This document shows positions 15,701 through 64,000 of a DNA stretch of 64,000 bases, piece by piece. This DNA is from Macrostomum lignano (Eukaryota), in contig NIVC01002718.1 of the NCBI GenBank assembly GCA_002269645.1, positions 1 to 64,000 on the forward strand, given 5' to 3'. The notes beneath the pieces were generated by a model that saw only the letters and a list, made by a program, of their open reading frames with translations, was not told where the DNA came from and searched no databases. The position numbers were made by a program, and so were the translations under genes. The stretch's first letter is position 1; every line of letters starts with the position of its first letter.

Positions 15701-17212
15701 TATTCAACAATCGCTCCGACCGCGTCAAAGTGGTGTTCCATCCCGAGTTTCTGAACTCCAGCAATCCGCTGCTGCCCATGGACTACGAAGAGTTTGTGCG
15801 CGGCTGCCACCTGGGCGTGTTCCCGTCCTATTACGAGCCGTGGGGCTACACCCCGGCCGAGTGCACCGTGCTGGGCATTCCGTCTGTGTCCACCAACCTC
15901 AGCGGCTTCGGCTGCTTCATGGAGCAGCACATCGAGGATCCGGCCAGCTATGGCATCTACGTGGTTGACAGGCGCTACCGGTCCGGGGAGGAGTCTGTTA
16001 GTGCTGCATCATTTTTTTATGATGATGATTATCGTCAGTAGCTGGGTCTATCTATCCACGTGTCCACCTTCATGGTTATCTATGATATTCACCCCCATGA
16101 TAATCAGCCTCCATGATAATCACCACCATGATCATCACCCCCCATGATCATCACCCCCCATGATCATCACCCCCATGATAATCACCCCCCATGATCATCA
16201 CCCCCCATGATCATCACCCCATGATCATCACCCCCCATGATCATCACCCCCCATGATCATCACCCCATGATCATCACCCCCATGATCATCACCCCCATGA
16301 TCATCACCCCCATGATCATCACCCCCCATGATCATCACCCCCATGATCATCACCTCCATGATCATCACCCCATGATCATCACCCCCATGATCATCACCCC
16401 CCATGATCATCACCCCATAATCATCACCCCCATGATCATCACCCCCATGATCATCACCCCCATGATAATCACCCCCCATGATAATCACCACCATGATCAT
16501 CACCCCCATGATCATCACCCCCCATGATCATCACCCCATGATCATCACCCCCATGATCATCACCCCCATGATCATCACCCCCCATGATCATCACCCCATA
16601 ATCATCACCCCCATGATCATCACCCCCATGATAATCACCCCCATGATCATCACCCCCATGATCATCACCTCCATGAATCAAAATTCTCACTTTAATAAAT
16701 CATATTTCTGACTTCAATAAATCATATGACTCATGATAATCATATCTGCACACAATAATCCACCCCATCGCCGCTCCCATTCCGGTCCGCAGGTGCAGCA
16801 GCTCGCCCAGTTCATGTTCGACTTCACCCAGTTGAACCGGCGCCAGCGCATCATTTTGCGCAATCGGACCGAGCGGCTCAGCGAATTGCTCGACTGGAAA
16901 AATCTGGCCATCTATTATCGCAAAGCCAGACTGGCGGCCGTGTCCGCCACCCACCCGGCCCTGTTCAAGGACTCAGTCCGCGAGGTCGGCGGCGCCGGGG
17001 TCGGCACCGGCAAAGGCCCGTCGTCGATCATCCTGAGCCGGCCGCTGTCGGCCGTGGCCAGCCCGATGGGCAGCCGGGCCTCGACTCCGCATCACAGCAA
17101 TCCTGGCAGCGACGACGAGGGCGACACCGGCACCGGGGCTGGCGCGGTTAGCAGCGAAGACGAAGTCGACGAGGACGCCGAACGGGCCGAGCTGTCGTCC
17201 CGGTCCAACTGA
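796..17212 (+). CDS. GYS: Glycogen synthase, 6 exons: 796-961, 11399-11688, 12993-13484, 14165-14512, 15538-15996, 16793-17212 (2175 nt, 724 aa)
   Basis: Motifs [10 protein letters not shown]|[66 protein letters not shown] and [13 protein letters not shown] are all present. Every junction is GT-AG and the phases (1,0,0,0,0) keep one frame from ATG 796 to TGA 17210-17212. Confidence 0.95.
1120..1500 (-). pseudogene. Merlin/ISXO2-like (IS1595-related) transposase N-terminal fragment with premature stops
   Basis: Reads [10 protein letters not shown]...[27 protein letters not shown] and continues past a stop as DLVYHW...[19 protein letters not shown]. This matches the Zn-ribbon/HTH start of eukaryotic Merlin transposases as I recall it. 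No DDE core is present. Confidence 0.7.
1662..1938. mobile_element. 277-bp MITE with about 55-bp imperfect TIRs and a 10-bp TSD (Mutator-like)
   Basis: Left AATGGCTAAAGTTCCAGCACCAGAACC..TAATGGCTATAGAT is inverted at 1885-1936. TTTTAATTTT occurs at 1652-1661 and 1939-1948. Confidence 0.75.
1966..2467. mobile_element. 502-bp MITE with 16-bp TIRs and an 8-bp TSD (hAT- or Merlin-type)
   Basis: TIR CCACACTCTCGAATCT versus CCCCACTCCCGAATCT (2 mismatches). GGCTAGGC occurs at 1958-1965 and 2468-2475. A TACGCC motif is repeated internally. Confidence 0.75.
3175..3396. repeat. 24-bp minisatellite (GATAAGCCAAGGATTATTGCACTT), left part
   Basis: About 9 tandem copies. The same array resumes at 9237. Confidence 0.9.
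3495..3585 (+). pseudogene. 28S rRNA-derived fragment (H69-H71, R2/I-PpoI target region), copy 1
   Basis: GGTAAACGGCGGGAGTAACTATGACTCT...GTCATCTAATTAGTG..CAT.AAT.GA...AGATTCC matches the conserved LSU segment. The central TTAAGGTAGCC is degraded. Confidence 0.85.
5150..5640 (-). pseudogene. Gypsy integrase C-terminal (SH3-like/GPY) region with one frameshift
   Basis: [14 protein letters not shown]...LQVGDRVML...KHQPRF/-GPYRVI...VHVDRLKK...YNLRSR. There is a 1-nt frameshift near 5420. Confidence 0.8.
5842..6504 (-). CDS. Truncated envelope-like glycoprotein ORF (signal peptide plus Cys-spaced ectodomain, class III fusogen-like)
   Basis: N-terminal hydrophobic [14 protein letters not shown], then [26 protein letters not shown] and [13 protein letters not shown]. 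The spacing resembles rhabdovirus G as recalled. It lies inside the LTR element. Confidence 0.5.
   Translation of the reverse strand: MILMGLLIFAGSFCEIEAMHTQYVDSPKFCTDIRAPIAIRLPEQQDCKIPKEGQDGRIKLKLTLHHENAETHKSVMKICHREDYNFTAQLYKIAGKTVFVYLTVAIKLQTVTVEQCNSWNAGATTEDGTLEEDLKVDGCISRYSTKKWVRNDLDNLAKTGEKLEITVSTVLTNVPFYVSGNGMNSLYVPVDKCKYKESKCQRDEKAANFKIWPLECTLPE
7913..7926 (-). promoter_or_regulatory. Primer-binding site complementary to tRNA-Glu
   Basis: TGGTTCCCTGACCG starts 1 nt after the LTR end TGTTACA. It is complementary to the metazoan tRNA-Glu(CTC) 3' end ...CGGTCAGGGAACCA. Confidence 0.85.
9237..9730. repeat. 24-bp minisatellite, right part (degenerates towards about 9900)
   Basis: About 20 copies of the same unit, in the same orientation as 3175-3396. 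Confidence 0.9.
11327..11375 (+). pseudogene. 28S rRNA-derived fragment, copy 2, just upstream of the GYS exon 2 acceptor
   Basis: GTAAATGGCGGGAGTATCTATA...GTGCCTCGTCATCTAAATAG, with the central target site deleted. Confidence 0.7.
12071..12133 (+). pseudogene. 28S rRNA-derived fragment, copy 3, in GYS intron 2
   Basis: GGGTAAATGGCAGGAGTAACTATAACT...TTAAGGGTAAAAGCCTCGTCATCTAATTAG. Confidence 0.75.
12911..13016 (+). repeat. Two-copy tandem duplication (57 + 49 bp) spanning the GYS intron 2/exon 3 acceptor
   Basis: CCAGAACTCACGCGACC(C)nGCAG|GCGCACATCGGCATACCCTATCAC occurs twice, with AG at 12942-43 and 12991-92. Confidence 0.9.
13510..14130. repeat. 22-23-bp minisatellite (GACTTTATAAGAATCGCCCCTT), GYS intron 3
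   Basis: About 27 tandem copies. Confidence 0.95.
14590..15345. repeat. 25-26-bp C-rich minisatellite (CCAGTATCCGCCTGCACCCACTATCCTC), GYS intron 4
   Basis: About 29 tandem copies. Confidence 0.95.
16090..16675. repeat. 15-16-bp minisatellite (CATGATCATCACCCCC), GYS intron 5
   Basis: About 38 tandem copies. Confidence 0.95.
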
Positions 17213-20338: not shown

Positions 20339-31795
<11,457 letters not shown>

Positions 31796-33863: not shown

Positions 33864-36800
33864 TCAGTTGAACAGCAGGTTTCTGTAGCAGCTGAGCAGC
33901 TCCGTAATGCTCGTGGCGTAGCGGCTAAACGTCCGCACCACCCTATAGCGGTGCGCCCGTTCGAAGTTCGAATTGGCCATTTCATAGTACTCGCAGTCGG
34001 CCAGAGTCAGCGACTTAAGCAGCGGGCATTTGCTTCTGGAATTTAGAGAGAGAGAGACCTTGGCCTTGAAGTGAGAAAGCGTCGGTGGGGGAATCCCGCC
34101 TTCTTTGACTTTGAACGGGTCGGTGAGGGAATCCCACCTTCTTTGACCTTGAACGGGTCAGTGAGGGAATCCTGCCTTCTCTGACCTTGAAGTTAGGGGT
34201 TGGTGGGGGAATCCCGCCTTCTTTGACCTTGAACGGGTCGGTGGGGAAATCCCGCCTTCTTTGACCTTGAACGGAACAGTAGAGAATCTCTCCATGACCT
34301 TAAACGGGTCGGTGGAGGAATATCGCCTTCTTTGACCTTGAACGGGTCGGTGTGGAATCCCTTTTTATGACCTTGAATGGGTCGTTGGGATACCCACCCT
34401 GACTTTTAGGATGATGACTCACCGAATATCGTCGATAAACTTTCCGCTCTTATGGCTGAATCTAATCGTTGTCACGTCCCATTGGATCTCGAGCCTCTCG
34501 AGCTTCTGGCAGTTGCTAGCAAAGGCGTTAATGACCTGGTCAATGTGCACCTTCGTGTTGAGCTCAAAGTACCAGCCGTCGCGCTGGCCTAAAGTGCAGA
34601 TTCTGCGGGTAGAGGCAGATGCTGAAAATTTTGCGACTTAATTGTATTGAACGATACCATTACGGACTTCAAGAGCGATCTTAAGGGCTGAGAGGCGATT
34701 CTCAGGGGCGAAGAGGCGATTCTCAGGGGCGGAGAGGCGATTCTCAGGTGCGGAGAGTTAGGAGTCTCACTGCAGGTTTCTCAGCAGCGGTATGTTGGCC
34801 GTCCAGAAGAACTCATTGAGCAGCGGCTTGCCGTGCAGCATGAGGCCGCTGAGCTGCGGGCCGCACCTGCGGAGGAATCTCCCGATGGCTGCCTCGCTCA
34901 GGCTGGCCGTGTAGCTGATGTCTATGGCCCGGAGCTCGCGGAAACTGCCCTTCTGCATCAGCCGGTCCAGAATCTGATTGTTGCCAAGAGGAGAATGGTT
35001 GGGGTTATTGGTCAGTCATGATGTATGAATCATGAGCAATTCATGAGCGATTTACGAGCGATTCAGGAGTGATTCAGGAGTGATTCATGAGTGATGCATG
35101 AGTGATGGATGAGTGATGGATGAGTGATGGATGAGTGATGGATGAGTGATGGATGAGTGATGGATGAGTGATGGATGAGTGATTCATGACTGATTCATGA
35201 GTGATTCATGAGTGATTCACGGGTGATTCATGAGTGATTCATGAGTGATTCATGACTGATTCATGAGTGATTCACGGGTGATTCATGAGTGATTCAAGAG
35301 TGATTCACGGGTGATTCATGAGTGATTCATGAGTGATTCATGATTGATTCATGAGTGATTCATGAGTGATTCATGAGTGATTCATGATTAGAATTTCTAA
35401 TCGTTAGGCATGTACACTTCACTGTGCCTTAGGGGTTGGCCCTCAATTGCGTTAATTTCTCGAGCAGAGCCAAGCCGGGATTCCAATTTAGCCCCAAAAT
35501 AAATGTGACTGCACTTGGATCGAGCCTGGGCCGCAGGCACATAAGCTGCTACTACTTCGATATTGGCTGAAGTTGGAGTCATGATACCCATAGCCGGTAG
35601 AACAGCTGACCGGGTCAGTGAAGAAGTCGCAATAGCCGACTGCGAGGTACTGGAAGCTGACAATTCTTCCCAGCACATTGTCCAGGCAAGCCGATGATAG
35701 CTCCGTTGAGGTGATGTCCAGCTCAGTGACGTGGGTGGCGGCCCATTCAACCGCCATCATGTGCTCGTCTTTCAGGTCTGGCAAAGAGCAATTGGCAAGT
35801 TTGCACTGGTTTAGTGAGTAGCCTCGATATTGCTTTTAAACTGGTTGTATATGCCTTTTAATGCCTTTTATGTGGGCGATTCTCAATGCTAGTTTAGGGC
35901 GATTCTCACCGCTAGTTTAGGGCGATTCTCACCGCTAGTTTAGGGCGATTCTCACCGCTAGTTTAGGGCGATTCTCACCGCTAGTTTAGGGCGATTCTCA
36001 CCGCTAGTTTAGGGCGATTCTCACCGCTAGTTTAGGGCGATTCTCACTGCTAGTTTAGGGCGATTCTCACCGCTAGTTTAGGGCGATTCTCACTGCTAGT
36101 TTAGGGCAATTCTCAATGCTAGTTTAGGGCGATTCTTGCCGCTAGTTTAGGGCGATTCTCACTGCTAGTTTAGGGCGATTCTCACCGCTAGTTTAGGGCG
36201 ATTCTCACTGCTAGTTTAGGGCGATTCTCACTGCTAGTTTAGGGCAATTCTCAATGCTAGTTTAGGGCGATTCTTGCCGCTAGTTTAGGGCGATTCTCAC
36301 TGCTAGTTTAGGGCGATTCTCACTGCTAGTTTAGGGCGATTCTGATTTATGGATGTTTGCTCGTTTCTAGTTGAAGGGTAATTTAGATAAAGGGGTTCCT
36401 ACTTGTTTCTACCTGTGGTTCAGTAGGGGGGGGGCTATTTCCAACAGTGGATCAGTGGGGATTCCCAACAGTGGATCAGGGGGATTCCCAACAGTGGATC
36501 AGGGGGGATTCCCAACAGTGGATCAGAGGGGGGGGCGATTCCCAACAGTGGATCAGGGGGGGGAGGCGATTCCCAACAGTGGATCAGGGGGGGGGCGATT
36601 CCCAACAGTGGATCAGGGGGGGGCGATTCCCAACAGTGGATCAGGGGGGGGGAGGCGATTCCCAACAGTGGATCAGGGGGGGGGCGATTCCCAACAGTGG
36701 ATCAGGGGGGGGCGATTCCCAACAATGGATCAGGGGGGAGGCGATTCCCAACAGTGGATCAGGGGGGGGGCGATTCCCAACAGTGGATCAGAGGGGGGGG

Positions 36801-38827
36801 CGATTCCCAACAGTGGATCAGAGGGGGGGGCGATTCCCAACAGTGGATCAGAGGGGGGGGGGGCGATTCCCAACAATGGATCAAAGGGATTTTCTTGTTT
36901 CAGCAACTACACTGAGGCGATTTGCAAAATGCCAGCCCCAAGTCTCACCGCAATGATGCAGCAGCAGAGTTTTAATCTTCTTGCACTTTTCCAGCAGCAC
37001 TTTGAGCGAAGCGCCGGTCACTTTGATGCAAAAGTTGAGCGCGACGCACTCCAGATGGACGCAGTTGTAGGACAGCAGCTCCACGTGGGTGTCGTCTACG
37101 AACATCACGCCGTAGAGGTTCACCACCCGGAGGTTGGGTGTGTGGGACTTGATCTTGCTCAGATTGATCACCTCGTAGATCTCTTCCTCCTCTTCTGTGC
37201 TCTGCTCGAATGTGCCTGGGTGATGTTTTGTACGGTAGGGGAGTTGATACAACATGACAAACTGACCAATTGATAGATTGATACAGCATGACAAACTGAC
37301 CAATTGATAGATTGATACATCATGACAAACTGACCAATTGATTGATTGATACAGCATGACAAACTGACCAATTGATTGATTGATACAGCATGACAAACTG
37401 ACCAATTGATAGATTGATACAGCATGACAAACTGACCAATTGATAGATTGATACAGCATGACAAACTGACCAATTGATAGATTGATACAGCATGACAAAC
37501 TGACCAATTGATTGATTGATACAACATGACAAACTGACCAATTGATAGATTGATACAGCATGACAAACTGACCAATTGATAGATTGATACAACATGACAA
37601 ACTGATCAATTGATTGATTGATACAGCATGACAAACTGACCAATTGATAGATTGATACATCATGACAAACTGATCAATTGATTGATTGATACAGCATGAC
37701 AAACTGATCAATTGATTGATTGATACAGCATGACAAACTGATCAATTGATTGATTGATACAGCATGACAAACTGACCAATTGATTGATTGATACAGCATG
37801 ACAAACTGACCAATTGATAGATTGATACATCATGACAAACTGAATAATTGATTGATTGATACAGCATGACAAACTGAATAATTGATTGATTGATACAGCA
37901 TGACAAACTGACCAATTGATAGATTGATACAACATGACAAACTGATCAATTGATTGATTGATACAGCATGACAAACTGACCAATTGATTGATTGATACAG
38001 CATGACAAACTGACCAATTGATAGATTGATACAGCATGACAAACTGAATAATTGATTGATTGATACAGCATGACAAACTGACCAATTGATTGATTGATAC
38101 AGCATGACAAACTGAATAATTGATTGATTGATACAGCATGACAAACTGATCAATTGATTGATTGAAACAGCATGACAAACTGACCAATTGATTGATTGAT
38201 ACAGCATGACAAACTGACCAATTGATAGATTGATACAGCATGACAAACTGACCAATTGATAGATTGATACAGCATGACAGACTGACAAGTTGATAGACTG
38301 AATGCTCAGCCTCACCAATCAGATGCAGCACCTGCACACTGGACAGGCAGTGGTAAATCTTGCGCATGAGGCCCTCCATGAAAATTACGTCGCTAAGACA
38401 GACGCACAGATTCTCCAAATTCGCGGGGAAATCCACCAGATCAGTGTAATCGTGCAGCTGCATCGCTTTGCTGAAGTCCAGCGTCATGCAGCGCAGGTTG
38501 ACGCACTGCCTGGCCAGCTCCTCCAGCACCGGGACAATGATCAGCTCGCACGGCAGCTCGATGCTGCGCAGTCCGGTTGAGAAGCGGCAGCCGATCAGCT
38601 CGATGAACTGGTTCACGTTGCTCACGGATAAGCCGCCGTACTCAGGCCGTAGGCGGACATTCTTCCACAGCCGGGTGTCGTAGGCGAGCTCGCGCCAACG
38701 GCTGCACACCTGGCAGATCAGGCACAGGTCCTTGTGCGATAGGTAGCTGAACACGCGGAGGGCCAGCTTGCTGGGCAGGTCGTTGAAATTGAAGTTGCTC
38801 TGCGGGAACGACGCGGGCGAGAGGCGG
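33864..38827 (-). CDS. F-box/leucine-rich-repeat protein; exons 38827-38316, 37215-36949, 35777-35611, 34973-34771, 34602-34423, 34035-33864; 5' exons unresolved
   Basis: F-box FNDLPSKLALRVFSYLSHKDLCLICQVCSRWRELAYDTRLWK is followed by FBXL-type LRRs (PNLRVVNLYG, LECVALNFC, VTELDITST, LRAIDISYT, LERLEIQW). GT-AG phases 1,1,0,2,2 join into one frame ending ...YRNLLFN* at TGA 33864-33866. Confidence 0.9.
34085..34395. repeat. About 38-bp minisatellite (GGGAATCCCGCCTTCTTTGACCTTGAACGGGTCGGTG)
   Basis: About 8 copies in the last F-box intron. Confidence 0.9.
34695..34755. repeat. 21-bp repeat (GGCGATTCTCAGGGGCGGAGA) x3-4
   Basis: Lies inside a 168-bp intron. Confidence 0.85.
35020..35390. repeat. 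11-bp minisatellite (GAGTGATTCAT / GAGTGATGGAT)
   Basis: About 33 copies. Confidence 0.9.
35872..36345. repeat. 23-bp minisatellite (GGGCGATTCTCACCGCTAGTTTA)
   Basis: About 20 copies. Confidence 0.95.
36425..36890. repeat. About 29-bp minisatellite (GGGCGATTCCCAACAGTGGATCAGGGGG)
   Basis: About 16 copies with variable G-runs. Confidence 0.95.
37245..38300. repeat. 32-bp minisatellite (GATTGATACAGCATGACAAACTGACCAATTGAT)
   Basis: About 33 copies filling an F-box intron. Confidence 0.95.
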
Positions 38828-39434
38828 CTGTTCAGGGGTCGCATTGGGGTGGAACGGGAGTGTGAGAATGGTAGCTTGTACGAGTAGAACGGTAACTACG
38901 CTCGTAGCTGGCCAAAAAGCGTCATAGAGTCACGAGAGTCATTTCAGAATAGTTGCAGGTAACGCAAATAAGATAGGAAAGAAGCGACTCTACCGGTAGA
39001 CGATTCTAAAACGAGGAGTTGTCACGGTACAAGTCGTCAAAAAGTCGTTTAAGAGTCGCCCGGTTTGAGACGTTTGATTGACTGCGGCTCTTACCCAACT
39101 CCCAACTCTTGGGCGGTTCTATAACGACTTTGGGGGCCGTAAAGTCGAATCTCAGGCGTGCTATAGGGTCGCTGCAGCATCACCAAGCATCTGCGTCATT
39201 TTATGAATTAGAAGCGCATTTTGGATTTATCATATAACAACTCCATTTAGTCTACTTGAGTTAGTAGAAAACGACTATTGCAGAACGAGTTTTTCACGAT
39301 TCTACAACTCACGTGACGCGCTCGTGACTCAACAGTCGTCTCTCCATCGCATCACAGTCGTTAAAAAGTCATAAGAGTCGTCCCAGAATCACTTGTGAAT
39401 TCTTTTCAATGACTAGCGATTCTTGTCATGGTAA

Positions 39435-41284: not shown

Positions 41285-42955
41285 TTAGTTGGGTAGCGCC
41301 AGGCGCCAGACTAGCGCCATATTTCGCGCCGACTTGTCCACCAGCCAGCGGCCCCACTTGTGCTCCTGGCCGAGGCCGGCCGCCAGCCTCAGTTCGCCGC
41401 CTCCATCATCATCAGGCTCCTCATCTGCTGAGGCTGGCCAGAAAGCCAGCTGATTGACAAAGCCGGCAGCCGGCAGTTCGAGCAGCCGGCTCAGCGTCAT
41501 GCCAGAGGACCCGGGCTGGGCGGCCACGCGCCAAAGGCGCACCAATCCGTCCCAGGAGCCGCTGGCCAGCAGATCCGCATTCTTCACGGCGGCCAGAGCC
41601 GTCACCCAGCGGTCCGGGCCGTGCGCCGCCGCCACCTTGGCCACTGGCCGCTTCTTCTGCATCGACCACAGGCACAGGCTGCCGTCGCCTTGACCGCTGG
41701 CGAATACCTGCTCCGTAACCATGGCAACGCATTCGCAGCTATTCGGCCCGCCGCCGGGCGGCAATTCGAACACTAGCTGAGACTCTTCGGCCAGTTTCCA
41801 TAGTCGCAGAGACTTGTCCGGGCCGCCGCAGCTGATGCAGCGGTCCAGGCGCATGGCGTCCAGTCCCAGTACGGGGGCGCTGTGACCGAACAGGGCCTCA
41901 ATGAAGCCCAGGCCGCAGTCTGGCGCTCCGCCCAGGCCCCAGTGCCGCACCGTCTTGTCGTGCGAGCCGCTGAACAGATGCAGCCCGCCGCCGCTGCCGG
42001 ATCCAGGCGCCCGCCTACGAAATGCCAATGCGTTGACGGCCGCCCGGTGACCGCGGAACTGGTGCACCAGCTGCAGGCTGTCGGCCTGCCACACCAGCAC
42101 GAGGCCGTCGGCATCGCCGGTGGCCAACCGGGTCTGATCGGAGCTCAGCGCCATGCACAGCACGTGGCCGCGGTGCAGAACGGCGCCGTCCGCCTCCGCC
42201 AGCTGCTGCTCAGTCTTGGCCTTCGGCTTGGACTTTAAGGAATGCCGGCAACGCTGCCGGAGGCCGCCCGGCACGTGGGCTACTCGGCGAAGATGCCGAC
42301 GCTCGCTGTCGCCGTCTTTGATCAGCACAGCTTGCAGAGACCAGCGCGCCACGGAGCCGTCCTTGCTGGCGGTGTACAGAGAATTGTCGCCGAGCTGCAC
42401 GCAGGTGACAGCCAGGCGGTGCCAGTTCTTTGCCAGACTGACGCTGCCGCTAGCGGCGTCGGCGGCAACGGCGGCTCCCTCGGCGACGATGGCATCGGCG
42501 AAGCTGGCGCGCAGGCGGCCGGCCCGTCGGAGATTCGCCGACTGCAGCCGGGCGCTGACCGCGCCGGTCACGTGAGCCTCCTCGTCTTCGTCATCATCAT
42601 CTTCATCCTCGTCGCCATAGCCAAGTCGTTCGGCTTCGCGTGCTTTTAACTCGCCGATGAGCTGCTGGGCCAGGCGCACCCGGGCCTCCTGCGGCGTCTC
42701 CAGCGCGTTGTCGTCGTCGTTCATAGCGGCGCTGTCCAAGTCGGCGGCGGCGGCGGCGACATTGACGGGTTCGTCAATTTCCGATTCGCTGGTGATTTCC
42801 TCTTCAGCTTTGACCTTTTCGGGTCGCTTCTTCTGCTTTTTCGACGCCTGTTGAGACTTGCCGTTGATGCCGGGCGCAGCGGCTGCCGCAGCGTAACGCA
42901 AGCGTTTCGCAACGGAGATCTTTGCCGGCTTTGTCCGTTTGGTTGGATTCGGCAT
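41285..42955 (-). CDS. RRP9: U3 snoRNP-associated WD40 protein RRP9/U3-55K, intronless, 556 aa
   Basis: Basic/acidic N-terminus, ETPQEARVRLAQQLI, WD repeats GHRAAVNALAFR, EALFGH...LD, LWKLAEESQLVF and DLLASGSWDG, and the C-terminal GLGQEHKWGRW signature. Confidence 0.92.
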   Translation of the reverse strand: MPNPTKRTKPAKISVAKRLRYAAAAAAPGINGKSQQASKKQKKRPEKVKAEEEITSESEIDEPVNVAAAAADLDSAAMNDDDNALETPQEARVRLAQQLIGELKAREAERLGYGDEDEDDDDEDEEAHVTGAVSARLQSANLRRAGRLRASFADAIVAEGAAVAADAASGSVSLAKNWHRLAVTCVQLGDNSLYTASKDGSVARWSLQAVLIKDGDSERRHLRRVAHVPGGLRQRCRHSLKSKPKAKTEQQLAEADGAVLHRGHVLCMALSSDQTRLATGDADGLVLVWQADSLQLVHQFRGHRAAVNALAFRRRAPGSGSGGGLHLFSGSHDKTVRHWGLGGAPDCGLGFIEALFGHSAPVLGLDAMRLDRCISCGGPDKSLRLWKLAEESQLVFELPPGGGPNSCECVAMVTEQVFASGQGDGSLCLWSMQKKRPVAKVAAAHGPDRWVTALAAVKNADLLASGSWDGLVRLWRVAAQPGSSGMTLSRLLELPAAGFVNQLAFWPASADEEPDDDGGGELRLAAGLGQEHKWGRWLVDKSARNMALVWRLALPN

Positions 42956-51125: not shown

Positions 51126-52275
51126 TCACAGACTGCATTGGTTGAACGTGCAGTTTTGCATAACGAAGATGTTCTTGCCATTTGAATGAACGTACGTTTG
51201 CGAAGTTGACCGCCTCCCATGGACCGTTGAGCTCTGGATATTGACTGGGCAGACGCTTGTGTTGACTACTGGGCTATCTGTTGTACTGGCTGATGGGCAC
51301 GCGCTCGTAATAACATGACCATCTAAATCCGGTGTAGTATTTTTCTCCATGTCCAGTACCTTGGTTACGGCGTCGCTGCACTTCTTTAGCACCTTGTCAC
51401 GTCTGATTGAGAGATATCGGCGAACGGTTTTTTCGCACTTCTGGCCAGTTATCGCCATGATGTCGGCCATGGAATGTCCAGCTGCTTCTAAGTCGCACAC
51501 CCTGCTGACTCTAAAATATTGGGCAAACGGTATTACACAATTGTAAGCATCTTGAGGCATTGCCTAAAGGCTAAATTAAGCTACACCTTTGGCAAAGGAG
51601 ATTTACCTGATGCAGTGGTTGGTGTAAACTTTGGATAGCTTGGCCTTCCCACTCAGCGTCTTCATAAAGTTGTTGAGATAGTTTACGCCTCTCTTCTGCT
51701 TAGCACAAAACCGCCGTGCTCCAGTCGGCGAATTTCTAATTAGCGGTCTTGGGAACAGAGAATTAATTGTCCTTCGTTTCACCAGGCAGGAGAGACAAAT
51801 ACTCATCTATAATTGCTGTGTCATATATCCTGGCCTGCTTGATTTCGACGTCTCTTTTGGCTTTCGCCGGATCAGCTGTCCTGTTCTTGGTCTTCGACGA
51901 TGATAGTGCGTAGTACATCCTTCCGTCTGAGTCGCTTTTCTTCTCTAACCAATCCTTTGTCTCCAAGCTCGCAAGGTGCTCTGTGCCTCGTTCTCCCAGT
52001 CCGTACAGCAGCCGAAACAGCATCTCGTCCTGTATAACTTCGGCAGTTGAGCGGTCAAAGTAAAGACGCAGCTTTTGCATGTCTCCTTCCTCAATTGGAG
52101 GAAACGGTCGAACCTGACCTCCTGAGGATTGCCACTCACGGACTTTGAACCGCAGTAGACGATTAGCTCCGGAAAATTCTTCTCCGCTAAGAATGTTAAT
52201 GTTGAGTCCCGCAATCATTGTCAAATAGCGTTGGATTCCAGCACGTATGCAGACTATACGCGCACTCGTGATCTA
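51126..52275 (-). mobile_element. Crypton-type tyrosine recombinase gene (DUF3504-like), with an intron at 51606-51511 and a 4-bp frameshift
   Basis: CIRAGIQRYL...LGERGTEHL...GVNYLNNFMK...YTNHCI|RVSRVCDLEAAGHSMADIMAITGQKCEKTVRRYL...MQNCTFN. A 96-nt GTAAAT..TTTTAG intron splits the HxxR motif. AATTAATT at 51761-51768 shifts the frame. Confidence 0.85.
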
Positions 52276-53091: not shown

Positions 53092-53382
53092 ATGCCAGGA
53101 CCCGCTGCCAGTGCCACGTCTGTCGGTGCAGGACGGACCCCGTCGAAGGCCGTGTCGCCGCGAGGTGCCGCCGGCGGCGGCGTAAGACAGCGCAAATCTA
53201 CTAGCAGTTCAACGGCCACGTCAACCAGGCGATCAACGCAGAACAATGCCAGCATGTGGCGCTTCTACACCGAGGACTCGCCTGGCATCAAGGTCGGCCC
53301 CGTCCCAGTCCTAGTCATGAGCCTGCTATTCATTGCCAGCGTCTTCATGCTGCACATCTGGGGCAAGTATACCAGGGCTTAA
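53092..53382 (+). CDS. SEC61B: Protein transport protein Sec61 subunit beta, intronless, 96 aa
   Basis: MPGP...VRQRK...[42 protein letters not shown]. Confidence 0.97.
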
Positions 53383-54570: not shown

Positions 54571-55339
54571 GAGAACCATCTTTGACCATGTAGAGAGATC
54601 TCTTTTACCCTGTTGTGAATCCACTTTTACCATACCATGTACAGAATCCCCTTGAATAATTCATGAAGATAGTCCTTCTTTTACCCAGTCTATAGTATCT
54701 CTATACCCTGGACAATCTCCCTTATCCATTCGAGTCAAGAATCTTTTTTTGTATGCATTAGAGACTTTCATCACGCAACTATAACATCGCTATTGCATAG
54801 AAAGTTAGAAAAAAGTTATAGCATATATTTTCGCTCCTCCTACTGAACAGTAGTGATAGTGGGCTGCTACAAATTTTACGAGCAAACAAACATTTTCGTG
54901 TTGAAAATAAACATGTAAACTTTGAAAAAATATAGCTGAACATACAGTACTCTTGTGAAATGCAATGTGTGTGCATGTGCGAGCTTATGGATCTGAATGC
55001 AGTACATGCACATCACATAAGCCGCAACATAATGCAGGTTGTTGCTTGTAAGCTTGTGTAACTTTAATAGCACGCAGCAAATAGTTCTTTGACAAAAACT
55101 ATGGACTTTACTAATCACAATAATTCCGATGAACTTAATCCTAAAAGAACCAATTTGATCAATGGGAGCATCTCCGCTTGCATGTACTTTTACTTGCATA
55201 CTGTACCGGTACATGTAGACAACAACAACAAAATACGTTGTCAGCCGGTCAAGCGAGAGTCAGTCATGAGAGGAAAGGGCAGAGTCACAGAGCACGTTTC
55301 AGGGCCTAGGCGTAAACGTTAGGCCGCACCACCGGCAGT

Positions 55340-57790
55340 GTCCGGGGCGTCGGCATCAGCCAGCAGGCAGTCGACGAAATGCCCAGTGCACGCTCCTGTC
55401 CCCGCTTACCTGCACCGTCTGCGGACAGTAAGACGACTCGGCGCGGATGATACCGCCTGCCAGCTGGAATCGCCGACGGCGCAACAGTTCGCTGGGAATT
55501 GGGATAGGCTGGTGCGGCGATAGAGTGCCGCATTGGTGAGGTGCTCGCTGGGACTGCAGGACAGCCCTCACAGAACGGAAAGCAGCCCAGGCAAGTCTGC
55601 GGCGACTTCACAGATCCTCGGGAACGTCAGGGCACCAGACCGCCGAGGAAATTAAAACGAACTGCTGACAGTAAGTGTGGAAGCTTCCTCACCTTCGGGA
55701 AACCATCAGCGTCTCAGCAGAAAATCGCAGCCTCGATGTCTATAGCTGGCGCGCGCAAAGCACGACGGTCTTCTGAGTGTTGAACCACCAGGCCGACGAT
55801 CGCCGCAAAGCTTACCCTGCCTGTCTAGCTGGCGCTGGGCGCCCTCGACGGTCGAGGACAGCAGGGCGAGATCATCAGCGTAGCCACGCACGCTATAAGC
55901 CGCCTCTCTGGTTGGCGTCAACCCACGCGTCTCTGCAGCAGGAATAGGTCGTCGTCATCAGAGGGAAGAGTGGTCCACAGCTCTTCAAGGCCGTCCGGTG
56001 TCAACAGAACCCATGCAGTCAAGCACCAGGAAGAACAGGAGCGGCCCAAGCGCAGCTCCTTGAAGCACCTCAGAGGATGTCTCAAAGACATCCGACAGGC
56101 CGTCCGGTGTCAACATGCAGCAGCGCTCCGTGTCATGATATTGCGCCATGACGGCGGAAATCAGCTGCTCTGGTACGTTGTACGCACAAATCACCATTGG
56201 GAGCACGGCCCTCACAACCGAGTCAAAAGCCTTTCCCGAAGTCAATAAAGAGAGCAATAGGGTTCGACTGCGCTTAATTCCTCGATGATTTGGCGAAGAG
56301 CCAGGATCTGCGCCACTGTGCCGCGATGGTGCCGGAACCCGTTCTGCTCAGGCCGCAAATACGGATCCAGCTGCAACCGCGATACCAGCATCCGATTAAA
56401 CAGCTTCGGAGCGCAGGACTGCAGGCGGATGCCTTGGTGCTCTTCAAGCCGTGTGGTGTCCGGCGTCTTCAGAATAGCGACGATTTTCGCCGTGGTCCAC
56501 TTTTTGGGTGTTGCCTCACCGAAAAGCACTAGGTTCATCACACTGGCGACCTCGCTGGCCACACAGTGGAGTCGCAGCACCTTGATGTTTACCTCGTCCG
56601 GACCCAGCGCTTTTGCCGCCCGGAGTCTTTAGGGCGAGCATCACAACGTCGGATGTGTTGGCTGGGGCTACGCTCGTACATTGAAGCTCTTCTCTGCTGG
56701 CAAAAGCAGCTTCAGATCGCTTGGCAGCGCGGAGGCGGCGGCGAGTTGACAATGGCGGCGAAGGACTCGCGCAGCACATTTCTGTGCTCATCCGGAGTGT
56801 CGCCAGCCAGATTGAGCGGGATGTGCCAGAGCCTCCTCCGCCTCGCGAGTTGGCCGAGTGCTCAGACGGAGCAGCTCTCCAGCTCTGCCCTCGATTTCTG
56901 AATCGCAGGGTTCTCCTGTCTGGCCGGCTGCCTACGTTCGGCCGGTCGCATCAGCGGAACTGCTTGCTTCGTCGCGGCTCTAACCGCGGAACAATTACCT
57001 CCGTGCAGTCGGCGCGCCCGCACCTGTCGCCAAGCGCGCTGACAAAGGCGCTAGCAAAATAACTACGCGTCTGGGTGTCCTTGAGTGCATGCACGGTAGT
57101 AGCGCCGCGGTTGCCACTTCGGCGGACGGTAGAGCAGATCACATACACACAGAATGAAGACGTGGAGCCGATGGTCGGACCAGAGAGCTAGCATGCGTGA
57201 TGGTGCGGCTGTCGACGGCGCGGCGGGGCTCGCGAAGACGCACAAGCACGTAATTGAGCTGTGCCTGCCTCCGCATCGCATTTCATTGCCCCCGCTTGCA
57301 GCCCACGAGGGTCGCGAGCCTGCCGGGTGGCTTGCAGAAGTGGGTGTTGGCCGACACTATGTCCTGCCTCTCCAGGAAGTCCCCCAGCGCTCCGGTGATG
57401 TCGTTCTCGCCCGGTGTCACCAACAGCGACCTCTCAGACCTACGCAAAACTGCGTTCAGGTCTGAATGGACGATCATTGTGTTCACGCTGCGCCGTCTCC
57501 TTCCCCTGCGCTGCGCCGCGCCCAGGTCCTCACAATGAATTCCCGGGTCGGCCCTGATGGACACCTCAATTGCAGTGCGATAACGTTCGCAGCTTAAGTC
57601 AAGCGCTACCATATGTAGCTGCGCCAGCAGCCCTCTCCACCAAAGCGGCCTTGAGAGTGCGGCAGTTCAGCGTCCCGAACTGAAGTGTGCCCTGTGGTAC
57701 GGTTCAGCCTCATGTTCCCTGGCGCCATCCAGAATATCCGCATGGGCCAGCAGCAACTCGGCGGGCAGCACCTTGCCGACCTCGTCAGTG
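55340..57790 (-). mobile_element. Degenerate APE-RT non-LTR retrotransposon (RTE-like) with many frameshifts
   Basis: LQFGTLNCRTL (APE start), SDLNA, NTHFCKP..RL.T, SDHRL, WTTAKIVAI.K, EQNGFR..RGT..QILALRQIIEE, KAFDSV, VLQG..L.PLLF.LVLD and YADDLALLS, in the canonical order. Confidence 0.9.
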
Positions 57791-58019
57791 CAAATAGAAG
57801 TTTACAACATACTTACTTATAGAGTAAGTCTGGAACATAGACTATTGTCATGTAAAGGTAACGTGAAGGAGTCCTCAAGTATGCTCTTAAAGCCAAACAT
57901 TATAACCTCTCTCTCACACTAGTGAAGGAACAGAAAAAGGAAAAAATCCCCAAGATCCCCTAGGAACTTTGGCTTAAAGTAAGCCACTCTGGGGCGAGTC
58001 TAATGACTCTTTCGGGACC

Positions 58020-58790
58020 GTATAACCCGTATAAAACGAAACGGTCACAAAAAGGGGCTGTTACCGTGTTTTTTACCGTTACGGTCACCAGTTACCATTT
58101 TTTACCGTATTTGTGACTGTTTAGTTCAGGGTCACCAGGTGACTGTTCAATGTTACCGTACTTTGTGACCGTTTTGTTTAGGGTAACCCTGTGACTGTTC
58201 ATAGTTACCGTATTTTGTGACCGTTTTGTTTAGGGTCACATGTTACCGATCAATGTTACCGTATTTTGTGACCGTTTTGTTTAGGGTAACCATGTGACCG
58301 TTCAATGTGACCGTATTTTGTGACCGTTTGTTCAGGGTCACATGTTACCGATCAATGTAACCGTATTTTGTGACCGTTTTGTTTAGGGTAACCATGTGAC
58401 CGTTCAATGTGACCGTATTTTGTGACCGTTTTGTTTAGGGTCACATGTTACCGATCAATGTGACCGTATTTTGTGACCGTTTTGTTTAGGGTAACCATGT
58501 GACCGTTCAATGTGACCGTATTTTGTGACCGTTTGTTCAGGGTCACATGTTACCGATCAATGTGACCGTATTTTGTGACCGTTTGTTTAGGGTCACATGT
58601 TACCGATCAATGTGACCGTATTTTGTGACCGTTTTGTTTAGGGTCACATGTTACCGATCAATGTGACCGTATTTTGTGACAGTTTTGTTTAGGGTCACAT
58701 GTTACCGATCAATGTGACCGTATTTTGTGACCGTTTTGTTTAGGGTAACCATGTTACCGATCAATGTTACCGTATTTTGTGACCGTTTTG
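58020..58790. repeat. About 51-bp tandem array built of GT(G/T)ACCG subrepeats, with two alternating variants
   Basis: GTGACCGTTTTGTTTAGGGT(CACATGTTACCGAT|AACCATGTGACCGTT)CAATGTGACCGTATTTT, about 13 units. Confidence 0.9.
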
Positions 58791-59169
58791 TTCTGTTGTG
58801 GAGTTTACTACTTGTCGCTTTCTACCAACTGTTGTCGTCTTCACTGCATAATAGGCTGCTACTATGTTGCTTAATTTGAGTGCGGCGTGACGCACGTGTT
58901 ATTGTTGCCTGAATTTTTACTTTACAATTTTACAGAGTAGCCTCTCCTGAAATAGGTCACATGGATACCCAGTTATATATAGTTAGGTATGGACAAGTGA
59001 TAGTTATGAATAGGGAAGCAAATTTATTACCTATGCCCAGGGATACGTTCTCTTTCAAATCAGTATATAAGGAGAAGTGACGGTAACCCACGAAGCAACT
59101 GACTAATTTCTCATGAACGTTTGCCACTTTTGCAGAGGATAAGAATCATTAAGAACAAAAATCTCTATC

Positions 59170-60319
59170 ATGGAAGACCAGCAACGCCGCGCCATTATGA
59201 ATCGTTTAAGAGTGAAACGATTTCGAGAACGCAAGACAGTGCAGCTTCTATTTCAAAGGCGACAACAGTGGTTGCAATCTGGAACGACTGCAATGGGCGC
59301 CGCCATTGGAAATCCACAGACGAATCGTGGTAATAAGCGCCGTCATCCAGACGACGACATCGGTAGCGAAGGTACTCCACAACCGCCATCTACCGGCGAA
59401 GCTACTTCACAACCGCCATCTACCGGCGAAGCTACTTCACAACCGCCATCTACCGGCGAAGCCTCCACCAGCGAAACTGCCAGTGAAGCCGGCGATGCCA
59501 GCGAAGCTACCGAAAGCTCTGCCAGCGAAACTGCCAGTGAAGCCGGCGATGCCAGCGAAGCTACCGAAAGCTCTGCCAGCGAAACTGCCAGTGAAGCCGG
59601 CGATGCCAGCGAAGCTACCGAAAGCTCTGCCAGCGAAACTGCCAGTGAAGCCGGCGATGCCAGCAAAGCTACCGAAAGCTCTGCCAGCGAAACTGCCAGT
59701 GAAGCCGGCGATGCCAGCGAAGCTACCGAAAGCTCTGCCAGCCAAGCACCTAGCGACGATGCCGAATACAGCGATGACGGTGACGGCGATGATTATGATT
59801 CAGACGACGCTAAACTGCGTAACTTTTGCCAGTTGGCCGCCTATCCTGGCGCTACTGTCCGGCGCAGCAAATAGTGCGGCATCGGTTTGTCCATCGTGTG
59901 CACCACTGTGCGCCAATGGCTTTAACTGGCCAGCAGCCTGGATCGACATGGCGTCAGACAAAGCTGCAGAAAAAGCTGTGGTGGTCGACATGCTGCAGCG
60001 AGTGGCCAAGCAGCTACCGGCACGGGCCGAGGAGCCCAGCAAGATACACCGCTGCCGCATTGTCATCACGACAATGATTGCGTACCTGGCGCAACAAAGA
60101 TCAAAAGGCGCCAGCCATGGTGACACGCCCGCTGAGGCGCAAAAGGCAATGGCCAACTGCCTGCGCATGATGTGCGATCGATATGGCCAAACTGTACTGG
60201 AGTCCGGCGAGGCGGTGCAACGGTCCGCCAACGGGCCGCCGGTCGCCGTAGTGTACGGCAAAGCGGCGTGGTTTCGCGAGATGTCTCGGGCGGAGGCCAG
60301 CTTTTGGAAGGCCGCCTAG
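59170..60319 (+). CDS. Unknown protein: basic N-terminus, Ser/Ala/Glu repeat region and helical C-terminal domain; probably 59170-59818 + 59868-60319 (366 aa)
   Basis: ORF 59170-59874 (RRAIMNRLRVKRFRERK; 30-bp x3 and 54-bp x5 repeats) joins the +1 frame (CPSC...WFREMSRAEASFWKAA*) through a 49-nt GTAACT..GCAG candidate intron. Confidence 0.5.
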
Positions 60320-61409
60320 ACCGCCCGCGTCGTGCCGGAGCCCGAGCCGCTGTCCGCTCGCCGTTATAGGCCGCGTGGTGGTCGCTCTACCCGCCTGCGG
60401 CGATTGTTCACCGCCATGGCTGCACTACTGCATAGCCGACCGGTCTGCGCCTTCGGCATGGCGGACGCCACTTTGGCAATTTTACTGCAGTATTGGGACA
60501 TGTCCAGTTAGACCTATATAGGTGAAATTTCAAAGAGCATCCGAGGTGTGGCCAAAAGTTAACGAGAATGTAGAATTGAACGTCTCGAATATTAAACTTA
60601 AAAAACAAAATAATTGCCTAGAATAGTAGCATCATCTCTATAATACACTTCATGAAACAGCCATTGGCTTTTTAATTAAATAATACATCGTAAATAGTAA
60701 TAATAAATAAAATTAAATAAATGAATAAAATAATATTAGTAAATAGTAAATAGTACTTAAATAGTTCCAACTGTTCAATAACACATTCACGTTACACTTT
60801 TGGCCACGTCTCGTAGTTTAACGGCCAGCCAACACAGCTGCATTTATTTTGCCAGCGCCATTTATTTTGGCGATGACGCATTAATGCGCAGATATTTTTC
60901 TACCGCTGCCGCTTGACAGTCTACGCCTGTTAAGTCGTCAGCGTATGTTATTTATATATATGGCCATATATGGCAATGACGCATTAATGCGCAAATATTT
61001 TTCTTCCACAGCTTTTATTGTTCTTTCACACTATGTTCTTCCAATTATTAACCTAAGTAGTACTAATACTACCGTGTATGTACTGTGTGTTGCAATTAAT
61101 ATTCATAATTCTACTACTACTACTAATAATAATACATATAGCCCGGTGGCCGCAAGGTTGCTGCAAGTTATGCGGCGCCTATTTTGGTCAATTCTTTACT
61201 ATTACTCTGGTCACAGCTGCAGTGTGTGTGTGTGTTGCCTCCTTTGGAGTAACTAATATAAGCGTACAGGAAATATGCAGACTCTTCCCTATAGCCCGTT
61301 TGCGTACGCAGCTGTTGCTTTCATTCTGATCTGAAGCTTCAAAATTTTAAACTTTTTGCATCTTAACGCCTTGCAGCTCCGTACCTGTCCGAGTTTCTTC
61401 CCATCGTCG

Positions 61410-62204
61410 ATGTCGGATCACTGGTCTCACGCCGCAACATGCGAAATCTGCAAAGCGCTGGTTCACGAGAACTGGGCCTTGAGAGCGGAGGTGGAGCGCC
61501 TGCGTAGCGGACGACCGGGTTCGCCTGTGTTCGATACCAGCCGCAACGTGCGCTTCCATCGGGCTATCGTGCGTTCAGATGTAGTGCCCAGCACTCAAGT
61601 GACAAAGTCCGCATGGCCGTTCAAGGACACTCGCTACAGCGATATTGCCGCCAACCAGGCGCGTGACTGTGCGCAAGTCTGCGAATCGGAGACTATGGGC
61701 CCCGAGAGTCTGCATCACTGGTACGCCGACAACCAGGCGAGTCGGCGTCAGCTGAATCAGCCGGCCGCGCAGCTGGACAGTGAGGATGAGCAGCAGTCGC
61801 GTGACGGGCCTTTGGCAATGTCCACTGAAGCCATTCAAACCGGACCGGCTCAAATGGTGTTGTCGGACAGTTTCATAGCAGACTATAACCGACTGCCTGA
61901 GGCGAGGATTCCGCAAAACTGCGTTTTTAAGGCTCGAAAGCGGGATGAGCGCATGCAGCTCGAAGCGCACTGCTGCGTTCAATGCGAGGGTTGGTTTGCC
62001 AACCTATCGCCGGAGACGAAGAGGAAACGCCTGCAGGCGGCTGGCCGTCATCGGTCCAACCAACCGAGGCCAAACTACGACCCCAATTTTTTCCGCATAG
62101 AAATGCCGGACACACCCCCAGAGGCACCAATCGATGCGATGAAAGTTGGTAAGCGTCGTCGCAAACCTCTACAACTAAGAGGTCCGGAACCTCGCAATAA
62201 TTAG
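61410..62204 (+). CDS. RBBP8: Miniature CtIP/Sae2/Ctp1 (SAE2-domain) homologue, about 264 aa, single exon visible
   Basis: C-terminal RKRDERMQLEAHCCVQCEGWF...KRLQAAGRHRSNQPRPNYDPNFFRIEMPDTP matches the CtIP RKxxER..L..CxxC...RHR..P..P.NF(W)...P.T block as recalled. N-terminal CxxC plus coiled coil. Acceptor at 61376-77 and AATAAA near 62208. Confidence 0.75.
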   Translation: MSDHWSHAATCEICKALVHENWALRAEVERLRSGRPGSPVFDTSRNVRFHRAIVRSDVVPSTQVTKSAWPFKDTRYSDIAANQARDCAQVCESETMGPESLHHWYADNQASRRQLNQPAAQLDSEDEQQSRDGPLAMSTEAIQTGPAQMVLSDSFIADYNRLPEARIPQNCVFKARKRDERMQLEAHCCVQCEGWFANLSPETKRKRLQAAGRHRSNQPRPNYDPNFFRIEMPDTPPEAPIDAMKVGKRRRKPLQLRGPEPRNN

Positions 62205-62620
62205 ACAAATAAAGTGATGAAGGACTGCGCTACATCACTAAATTTCTAACCGTACTTAAAAACCGCACGTCTGCTATGTGTTTTGGTATAAAACTTTTTC
62301 TCGCTCACGACTGCGCTACATCACTAAATTATTACTAACGGTATTTTAAACCGTCCGACATACGTCTGTCAAGCCGTTGTTCCATTCATTTCAAATGTAC
62401 CATTGATCACCTTTAATCTTAGTACCTTGTGTAAAACACGGACTAACACTAAACTATAGTTAAACTAAACTAAACTAGCTAGTACTAGTACCTGCACGCT
62501 AAACACGGACTAACACTAAACTAGCAGCTGCACGTTTTTTCTACTATATCTGTACTTTGTAACACTCAGATTAAACTACATCCTCATTTGCAGCACTGCA
62601 GTATTACAATAGAAACCAAA

Positions 62621-64000
62621 ATGCCCAAACCAAGTGACGCTACTACAAAGCCAAAAGAGAAAGGCAGCAAAACGGGCGCCAAAGGGTCGCGAAAGAGGCC
62701 CATCGAGACGGAGCCAAACAATGAAAAAGCGGTAAAAAAGCGCAACAGTAAGTCCAACTTAGCCTCCGCCGCTGCTAGCGCTACTTCCGCCACTGGCGCA
62801 TCCACTAATGCTGATGGCGCTTCTATCCCCGCTGGTGCTTCTACCGCCGCTGGTGCTACTGCCGCCGCTGCAGCTGGCGCATGCGCTAACACTGATGGTG
62901 CTTCTACTCCCGCTGGTGCTTCTACCGCCGCTGGCGCGACTGCCGCCGCTGCAGCTGGCGCATGCGCTAACACTGATGGTGCTTCTACTCCCGCTGGTGC
63001 TTCTACCGCCGCTGGCGCTTCTAGCACCTCTGCGACTGGCGCCGGTAAAAAGCCAGCTTCCGGTGGCCCAGCAGCATACCGCTACTGGGTATTTGAATAT
63101 GCGCCGGAAGACGGCGGTCGGCTTGGAGTCTATGCCGACAAGTGTGTTGTTACTGACGGCTCAGTAGATTCGAGCAAACTGTCAGTTGACGATGATGTCA
63201 CCATTAGACCGGGAAAGACCGCCAATAGTAAGGCGTACCGCGTGCGAATATGCAAAGGGCCATACCGCACAAAGGCGGCTGCAGAAGCCGGTGCCAGTGC
63301 CTGTCAAGCGGTACACAGGCCGGGTGGCATTAACATGCCTAACGGTTGCGCCACCTGCCAGGCGCTCAGGCATGAGGTTTTAAACCTCCGGACATCCGCC
63401 GAATTGGCGCAGCAGACTGCCGACGGCTACAGGGAAAGCCTGCAACGGCAGAATGAAGACCTGGCCAAAAGACTCGAAGACGCTGAATTTGAGCGCAATG
63501 AGTACAAAGAGAAGTATGAAAGTGCAGCCAATAGAACACGCGAGTTGGAGTGCCAACTCGAGTACGCACAGATCGGTGCTAATCCTTCAAGTTCTGCTGA
63601 ACAATCGGTCGGTGTTCTCGCCAAATATGCTACGGTGTTGCAGGACGCCGTGTTTTCCGCCATCGGCGTTCTGCAAGGTGCGGTTTCGCAGGATATCGTA
63701 GTAGATTGCGTTGCTGACACGATCAGCAGCAGCAGTACGACTGCTGGTGGTGGCGCTTCTGCGGCCGCCTCGTCTGCAGCTCCGTTGCTGGACGACATGG
63801 ACCTGCGCGCTCAGATCCGAATGTCGTCAGTGAATCAGCGGAAACGTGAGCCCGAGACGAGGTCCTTGACAGCGCGCTGTCCCGACGTCGTCGTGTCGGC
63901 CACCGACTACGCAAAGATAAAGAATGCCGTGTCCGCCTATGTCAAGGGAGGTTACAGGAGTACCGACGCAGATAAATTGCTTCGGACCTTGTACTTAGCA
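62621..64000 (+). CDS. Unknown protein of more than 460 aa, open to the window edge (missing from the ORF track): basic NLS-like start, Ala/Thr repeats, CxxC-coiled coil, possible BEN-like domain beginning at the edge
   Basis: I translated ATG 62621 to 64000 by hand with no stop. It contains a 78-bp internal duplication, CATCQALRHEVLNLR plus a long heptad coil, and ends ..DYAKIKNAVSAYVKGGYRSTDADKLLRTLYLA. Confidence 0.8.
   Translation, partial: MPKPSDATTKPKEKGSKTGAKGSRKRPIETEPNNEKAVKKRNSKSNLASAAASATSATGASTNADGASIPAGASTAAGATAAAAAGACANTDGASTPAGASTAAGATAAAAAGACANTDGASTPAGASTAAGASSTSATGAGKKPASGGPAAYRYWVFEYAPEDGGRLGVYADKCVVTDGSVDSSKLSVDDDVTIRPGKTANSKAYRVRICKGPYRTKAAAEAGASACQAVHRPGGINMPNGCATCQALRHEVLNLRTSAELAQQTADGYRESLQRQNEDLAKRLEDAEFERNEYKEKYESAANRTRELECQLEYAQIGANPSSSAEQSVGVLAKYATVLQDAVFSAIGVLQGAVSQDIVVDCVADTISSSSTTAGGGASAAASSAAPLLDDMDLRAQIRMSSVNQRKREPETRSLTARCPDVVVSATDYAKIKNAVSAYVKGGYRSTDADKLLRTLYLA

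Follow-up and report, generated by a model that had tools for sequence, protein, structure and literature searches.

The 64,000-nucleotide stretch of contig NIVC01002718.1 from the flatworm Macrostomum lignano that was analysed here (the window) contains, at position 58026, one end of a DNA transposon that exists in multiple copies. Three plus-strand open reading frames (ORF1 to ORF3) downstream of this position very probably lie within the transposon, and the middle one, ORF2, almost certainly encodes a homologue of CtIP/Ctp1, as judged from its sequence. The element is probably of the animal CACTA/EnSpm (‘TRC’) kind. Our tentative proposal is that it represents the arm of a CACTA/TRC-like transposon with two notable genes, one likely to encode a BEN-domain protein and the other a divergent homologue of CtIP, by which the Mre11-Rad50 complex of the host would be activated at excision breaks. 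An original prediction had described this region as the arm of a giant mobile element, either a large DNA transposon or an endogenous virus, in which a repeat array is followed by three co-oriented genes. The view of a DNA transposon arm with a subterminal array is upheld by the presence of one terminus on several flanks and of ORF3 copies on contigs without the host neighbours. A giant size is unproven, as the element sequence covered up to the window end amounts to 5,975 bp plus at least 116 further ORF3 codons.

The terminus was located by comparing assembled contigs from 4 of 24 listed runs (X1, X2, X3 and X19, from four studies) with positions 57650-58150. The summed contig depth, which is not equivalent to copy number, was 21.7, 31.2 and 62.2 in the flank for X1, X2 and X3, and reached 645, 778 and 2595, respectively, at 58041-58057. 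This step of about 25- to 40-fold started in the bin 58024-58040 in all three runs. At 58023-58026, differing flanks were found to join the element in at least 5, 1, 5 and 2 contigs of X1, X2, X3 and X19, respectively. Since one terminus is thus present on several different flanks, 58026 represents a transposon end, and the dispersed copies are evident from five distinct readable flanks among the contigs listed, which end in ATAA (the window), TTAA, CTAA, CAAG and ACCA. In X19 the flank at 57718-58023 was without cover, and this was not used as evidence. A boundary near 57.8-58.0 kb had been predicted; the depth step and the loose contig ends place the exact terminus at 58026 instead. Of the region 57.9-64 kb, the contig comparison covered the part up to 58150, in which the depth rises at 58026. 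A CACTA motif at 57917 was considered as an alternative terminus and rejected, because the depth is even there and no loose end occurs at this position among the contigs listed.

The terminus itself (58026-58067, plus strand) starts with CCC and is likely to be a 42-bp terminal inverted repeat, with loose contig ends in all four runs. In each of these runs there was also a second end type, which has the first 42 bp (58026-58067) in common with the terminus and diverges behind 58067. This is probably the right end of the element, but it may instead be the end of a sister family. No closing inverted repeat of the terminus is present within the window. Neither metagenome nor prokaryote contigs contained an exact match to the terminal 23-mer. 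Several observations weigh against our proposal as a whole. No empty site was found: the flank of the present insertion (57703-58025, ending in ATAA, even depth in X1 and X3) derives its depth from a single contig in X1 and in X3 that runs unbroken into the terminus, and both haplotypes represented in X2 enter the terminus as well. The window, beyond which the element continues, showed neither a transposase nor a linked right end nor a duplication of the target site, and at no further locus were the genes physically linked to the CCC terminus.

Immediately behind the terminus are the subterminal repeats (58068-58792, plus strand), which consist of degenerate units followed by the predicted 51-bp array at 58104-58792 (13.5 copies, 90% matches). 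The array carries GTKACC motifs, paired either directly or as palindromes, at about 70 per kb, compared to 0.4-0.6 per kb elsewhere. The array motif recurs once in inverted orientation inside the terminus at 58039-58051, and the 13-mer of this site has 16 matches in the window where 1.75 would be expected. Among 21 arrays of the window that were tested, this array alone is bordered by an inverted copy of its motif. Each array unit resembles the inverted terminus, and the subterminal repeats are related to the terminus as in TRC elements.

The three ORFs have a GC content of 57-58% and are separated by spacers with 36-39% GC that contain small duplications (families D7, D12 and D13), and the outer two include in-frame coding repeats, all of which agrees with the original prediction. 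In ORF1 (59170-60319, plus strand) these repeats measure 30 bp (3.2 copies) and 54 bp (5.1 copies), and in ORF3 81 bp (2.8 copies). ORF1 has a basic N-terminus, acidic repeats and a 149-residue C-terminal exon. Its predicted length of 366 residues holds if a predicted 49-nt GT..AG intron (59819-59867) is spliced, whereas the unspliced frame encodes 234 residues. No family or homologue was identified for the C-terminal exon (606 candidates, none at E≤1). The description of the genes as orphan-like does not apply to ORF3, which has three near-identical deposited relatives. Nor does a paucity of introns set the three genes apart from the host genes, as the WD40 and Sec61-beta genes of this window likewise consist of a single ORF each. 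Behind the ORF1 stop, 63 open GC-rich codons (60320-60511, plus strand; GC content at third codon positions (GC3) 0.70) continue in frame, and ORF1 may formerly have been longer or its stop may be read through. The spacer between ORF1 and ORF2 contains a 272-bp stretch with inverted arms of about 26 bp (60542-60813), possibly a nested miniature inverted-repeat transposable element. A pyrimidine-rich AG site precedes each of the three ATG codons by 25-45 nt, AATAAA follows ORF1 and ORF2, and the segment 58793-59169 (plus strand), with a splice-acceptor-like site ahead of the ORF1 ATG, is likely to be the promoter or 5' region. In M. lignano, 30% of the genes are trans-spliced and 15% belong to operons in which the genes are less than about 1 kb apart (PMC8629364). 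Because of these figures and the acceptor-like sites, an operon-like unit fed by a single promoter near the array is plausible.

ORF3 (62621-64000, plus strand) is truncated by the window end and would encode about 576 residues in full, with a low-complexity N-terminus, a CxxC motif and a coiled coil, and a likely C-terminal BEN domain; a small Tudor/SH3-like stretch was recognized by eye. A search against 1.84 billion representatives returned 3 matches, one of which is a genuine relative. The cluster of this relative comprises three deposited proteins (P0001, P0004 and P0005) with 0, 0 and 5 differences over 222 shared residues, and these proteins supply 116 residues past the window end. One of them is named a BEN-domain protein in UniRef, and the top matches for ORF3 in the Atlas were BEN clusters at 0.81, which we regard as a lead only. 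The C-terminal part also matches Pfam BEN with E 0.011, and ORF3 is likely to be a BEN-domain protein. This assignment is weakened by the Pfam BEN score of 16.3 bits, which stays below the cut-off of 23.2, and by the single-sequence fold of P0005, which is helical with a predicted local distance difference test score (pLDDT) of 53.5, generic matches and no clear match in the PDB. In the Foldseek comparison a BEND3 BEN4 chain appeared at rank 28 with E 2.7, which is not support for a BEN domain.

The deposited ORF3 relatives are encoded on contigs of 136345 nt (P0001), and 60744 and 195105 nt (P0004, P0005), while the WD40 gene is found on contigs of 146994, 136345 and 247842 nt. We infer that the 146994-nt contig is the window's own contig, as it records both the exact WD40 and the exact Sec61-beta protein. 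The 60744- and 195105-nt contigs each carry an ORF3 copy, and neither WD40 nor Sec61-beta is listed for them; conversely, on the third sister contig (247842 nt) the WD40 gene occurs and an ORF3 member does not. This provides indirect evidence for ORF3 copies away from the host neighbours, in a pattern that contig breaks or absent annotation could mimic. The force of this pattern is reduced by the fact that P0001 lies on a sister haplotype of the present locus, since the 136345-nt contig also carries the WD40 gene. Moreover, M. lignano has three subgenomes (PMC10733133), so that up to three copies are expected at any locus and three ORF3 copies by themselves are no proof of mobility.

P0001 and P0004 are in-frame fusions of the ORF1 N-terminus with ORF3, joined across a 12-bp microhomology (59846-59857 versus 62850-62861 or 62931-62942) and with differing repeat counts. 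The skipped span (59846-62942, plus strand) removes ORF2, and the absence of ORF2 from 2 of the 3 ORF3 gene models speaks against a role of ORF2 in the element. Splicing was rejected as the origin of the fusion, because GT-AG, GC-AG or AT-AC ends are absent from all 13 equivalent placements. It is also less likely that the fused gene is ancestral and that the ORF2 block was inserted into it, as the 81-bp repeat array of ORF3 crosses the junction. The best interpretation of P0001 and P0004 is that they represent internal deletions, or gene models based on a copy with such a deletion; an artefact of template switching is also possible. Whichever the origin of the fusion, ORF1 and ORF3 form one unit with ORF2 between them.

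ORF2 (61410-62204, plus strand) encodes 264 residues with an intact frame and a GC3 of 0.62. As anticipated by the designation mini-CtIP in the original prediction, its C-terminal 90 residues match the SAE2 profile (PF08573) with 23.8 bits against a cut-off of 19.8, and the Atlas points to SAE2 at 0.88 (a lead only). Human CtIP has the DNA-binding RHR motif at 837-839 as well as T847 and T859 (PMC6344080), and a C3H1 zinc site formed by C813, C816, C835 and H838 has been proposed (PMC11317151). In an ungapped alignment C813, C816 and C835 correspond to C189, C192 and A211 of ORF2, R837-R839 to R213-H214-R215, and T847 and T859 to Y223 and T235. Thus, the CxxC...RHR arrangement is kept at the spacing of human CtIP, as are three of the four proposed zinc ligands and the T859-equivalent Thr235. 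In contrast, the cyclin-dependent kinase (CDK) site is lost, with Tyr223-Asp224 at the T847/S267 equivalent. This site is not universal, since Ctp1 has Ile at this position, and Schizosaccharomyces pombe Ctp1, with its hydrophobic residue, is active without CDK (bioRxiv 2023.08.05.552090). The N-terminal part contains a CxxC motif and a helix at 7-32 that is predicted with low confidence (pLDDT of about 50 in a single-sequence fold). At the N-terminus of ORF2 (61440-61510) and at the start of the ORF3 coiled coil (63347-63420), a CxxC motif is followed by a similar heptad run, and a common origin or a hetero-oligomer of the two is possible. ORF2 differs from the housekeeping members of the CtIP/Ctp1/Sae2/Com1 family by its short length, by the Ala and Tyr at the C835 and T847 equivalents, and by its location within a mobile element.

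The case for ORF2 as a CtIP homologue that serves the element is tempered by a number of results. The whole protein reaches only 18.1 bits with the SAE2 profile, so that the cut-off was passed upon trimming to the domain. The third zinc cysteine is replaced by Ala211, with an extra Cys188 nearby. Its single-sequence fold has a pLDDT of 43.6 with generic helical matches and no clear match in the PDB. Furthermore, just a single copy of ORF2 was seen, and no deposited protein is equal to it. Word-based searches, which are weak for a protein of this kind, revealed no relatives: none of 432 candidates had E≤0.001, none of 8 longer ones had E≤10, and there were 0 matches in PDB sequences and 0 in viral and metagenome contigs. 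ORF2 is therefore no close duplicate of any host gene that has been annotated. Altogether, we consider the chance that ORF2 is functional for the element to be a little below even.

The assignment to the CACTA/TRC kind is based on the CCC terminus, the subterminal array derived from the terminal motif, and the mostly non-TTAA flanks (TTAA in 1 of 5). The CCC start at 58026 recurs in contigs with different flanks, and animal CACTA-related elements do start with CCC and produce 2-bp duplications (PMC1636069). The closest known system in this respect is SmTRC1 of Schistosoma mansoni, which also resides in a flatworm, has a CCC-started terminus (54 bp, here 42 bp), a tandem-repeat region near one end and internally deleted copies; it differs in its size of 4.5 kb and its one Transposase_21 ORF, as opposed to at least three separate ORFs and no transposase in 5,975 bp here (PMC1636069). 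Since most elements of the wider CMCT clade have CA..TG ends (PMC12730594), CCC marks the animal subset. None of the ORFs in the 5,975 bp covered encodes a recognizable Transposase_21-type DDE transposase, and the element continues beyond the window. The termini of piggyBac elements likewise start with CCC, and an alternative would be that the element belongs to that superfamily, either as a Pokey-like element or as a large cargo carrier. Three of the five readable flanks listed end in TAA (ATAA, TTAA and CTAA), which favours such a view because all three are reported Pokey duplications, with TTAA at 88%, ATAA at 5% and CTAA at 1% of the target sites (PMC3849761). However, a great majority of TTAA sites is not seen here (1 of 5, with two near-variants and two unrelated), the CAAG and ACCA flanks lie outside any piggyBac site, and in X1 as well as in X3 4 of the 5 loose-ended contigs listed have no TAA end, which makes a piggyBac origin improbable.

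Slightly less probable still is the explanation that the terminus and the array represent a short non-autonomous element beside separate, lineage-specific host genes, in which case ORF2 could be a host CtIP paralogue. This would fit with the lack of a terminus-gene link at any further locus, with the likeness of each array unit to the inverted terminus, with copy counts inflated by the three subgenomes, and with the existence of short host CtIP genes, such as that of Paramecium with under 200 residues (bioRxiv 2023.08.05.552090). On the other hand, a closing inverted repeat is absent from the window, two ORF3 copies are on contigs without the host neighbours, and the 247842-nt sister contig lacks an ORF3 member. 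An endogenous DNA virus or Polinton-like element, which was the other half of the original prediction, is very improbable. Compact co-oriented ORFs would suit it, and some animal DNA viruses carry BEN genes. Yet no relatives were found in viral contigs, there was no useful PHROG match, and neither pPolB nor capsid nor packaging ATPase genes are present in the part of the element covered. In addition, the ends start with CCC and have only 42 bp in common, unlike Polinton terminal repeats, which are long and start with AG.

If the CACTA/TRC-like element does carry a CtIP homologue for its own benefit, the following course of events can be envisaged. ORF3 would oligomerise via its coiled coil and bind the GTKACC repeats via its BEN domain, thereby doing the job of TnpA. 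The element would be excised by a Transposase_21-type enzyme, the gene for which would lie either beyond 64 kb or elsewhere in trans, and hairpin-sealed donor ends would be left behind. Such ends are suggested by the relationship of CACTA transposases to RAG/Transib, with which they have motifs in common (Transib/RAG1; PMC12730594), and by the hairpins that RAG forms on the flanking ends (PMC3894167). Like S. pombe Ctp1, ORF2 has no CDK site, and it would stimulate the host Mre11-Rad50-Nbs1 (MRN) complex independently of the cell cycle. Hairpin footprints are known for CACTA excision. The donor site might then be opened and resected, which would favour survival of the host and restoration of the element by copying from the sister or a homeologous sequence, while copies that lost ORF2 by microhomology deletion would persist as non-autonomous riders. 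By analogy, it is plausible that ORF2 processes hairpin or blocked ends for the element, as originally predicted. CtIP works by activating Mre11-Rad50, and the Mre11-Rad50-Xrs2 (MRX) complex with Sae2 is needed at hairpin-ended breaks (bioRxiv 2023.08.05.552090). The same source speaks against ORF2 being sufficient, in that CtIP is a cofactor of the host Mre11-Rad50 and no stand-alone end-processing enzyme.

The main rival to this mechanism accepts the same CACTA/TRC element with its BEN helper, and regards ORF2 as a passively captured, decaying CtIP copy without a role in transposition. CACTA elements capture host genes, and the missing third zinc cysteine, the missing CDK site, the one known, undeposited ORF2 copy, and its skipping in 2 of 3 ORF3 gene models would all be explained. 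Though unlikely when taken by itself, passive capture is nearly as likely as an element-serving CtIP. It is countered by the intact frame of 264 codons with its own acceptor-like site and AATAAA, and by the exact motif spacing, for which the word-based searches, weak as they are, gave no close host relative among the deposited proteins; this suggests that selection has maintained ORF2 for a long time. We consider it improbable that ORF2 acts as a decoy that binds MRN or DNA ends without activation, and so shields the element ends or dampens damage signalling. The loss of the CDK site and of one zinc ligand, with RHR kept, would be in line with a decoy, and so would the published model in which the phosphorylated CDK site must complement an arginine on Rad50 (bioRxiv 2023.08.05.552090). 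However, Ctp1 is active despite its hydrophobic residue at the CDK site, Thr235 is kept in ORF2, and Cys188 could stand in for the lost ligand.

Among other systems, maize En/Spm, with TnpA and TnpD, is similar in that the element encodes a second protein and also has short subterminal motifs arranged in an array. TnpA binds these motifs, and to our knowledge no CtIP occurs in En/Spm. The two differ in that En/Spm has a CACTA end (here CCC), and its helper, TnpA, which is essential (PMC1636069), is an alternative splice product, whereas the likely BEN protein has its own ORF. Multi-gene CACTA-related elements with host-type cargo are already known, and the fungal TET/JBP-carrying EnSpm, Plavaka and ESTA transposons resemble the present element in that they are CACTA-related and carry a host-type gene acting on DNA that is thought to serve the element; their cargo is directed against methylation silencing, and that of the present element would be a break-repair cofactor (PMC12730594). 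In the literature within reach of our search, which left most subscription papers and Repbase aside, we found no description of a transposon-borne CtIP or of a pairing of BEN protein and transposase. The element family itself may already be included in the supplementary files of published repeat libraries. After excision a DNA transposon relies on host break repair, which decides on cell survival and on the gain of element copies. A transposon with its own MRN activator would set the repair pathway itself, and ORF2 would offer a natural, minimal, CDK-site-free CtIP for probing the CxxC-RHR activation of Mre11. Even if ORF2 is passive, the element would represent a young family in a regeneration model, with a BEN protein and repeats as an animal counterpart of TnpA.

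Outside the element, a broken RTE-like retrotransposon relic (55220-57702, minus strand; left limit approximate) precedes the flank. The relic is clearly a repeat, with homology to other copies stopping at 57702 in contigs of all four runs, but the RVT_1 profile match is weak (E 0.068). Between this position and the AT-rich part of the flank is a GC-rich, single-locus segment (57703-57793). The WD40 gene (41288-42955) and the Sec61-beta gene (53092-53382) are intronless with exact translations deposited, the WD40 gene being RRP9-like by eye. Both proteins belong to clusters in which the named members come from M. lignano. Genes with minisatellite-filled introns, likewise recognized by eye, are glycogen synthase-like (11314-17212), TIA1-like (27505-30043) and F-box-like (35488-38895). 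Two broken frames on the minus strand at 51126-52272 look by eye like a Crypton/DUF3504-type tyrosine recombinase relic, with no useful Pfam match. A frame at 1232-1669 (minus strand), with no Pfam match, is similar by eye to the N-terminus of a Merlin/IS1016-type transposase. Lastly, a long terminal repeat retrotransposon relic at 4405-6868 (minus strand) has an integrase C-terminal domain (E 2.5e-10) that adjoins a 248-residue, possibly env-like frame, and it is flanked by two copies of a 13-bp repeat.

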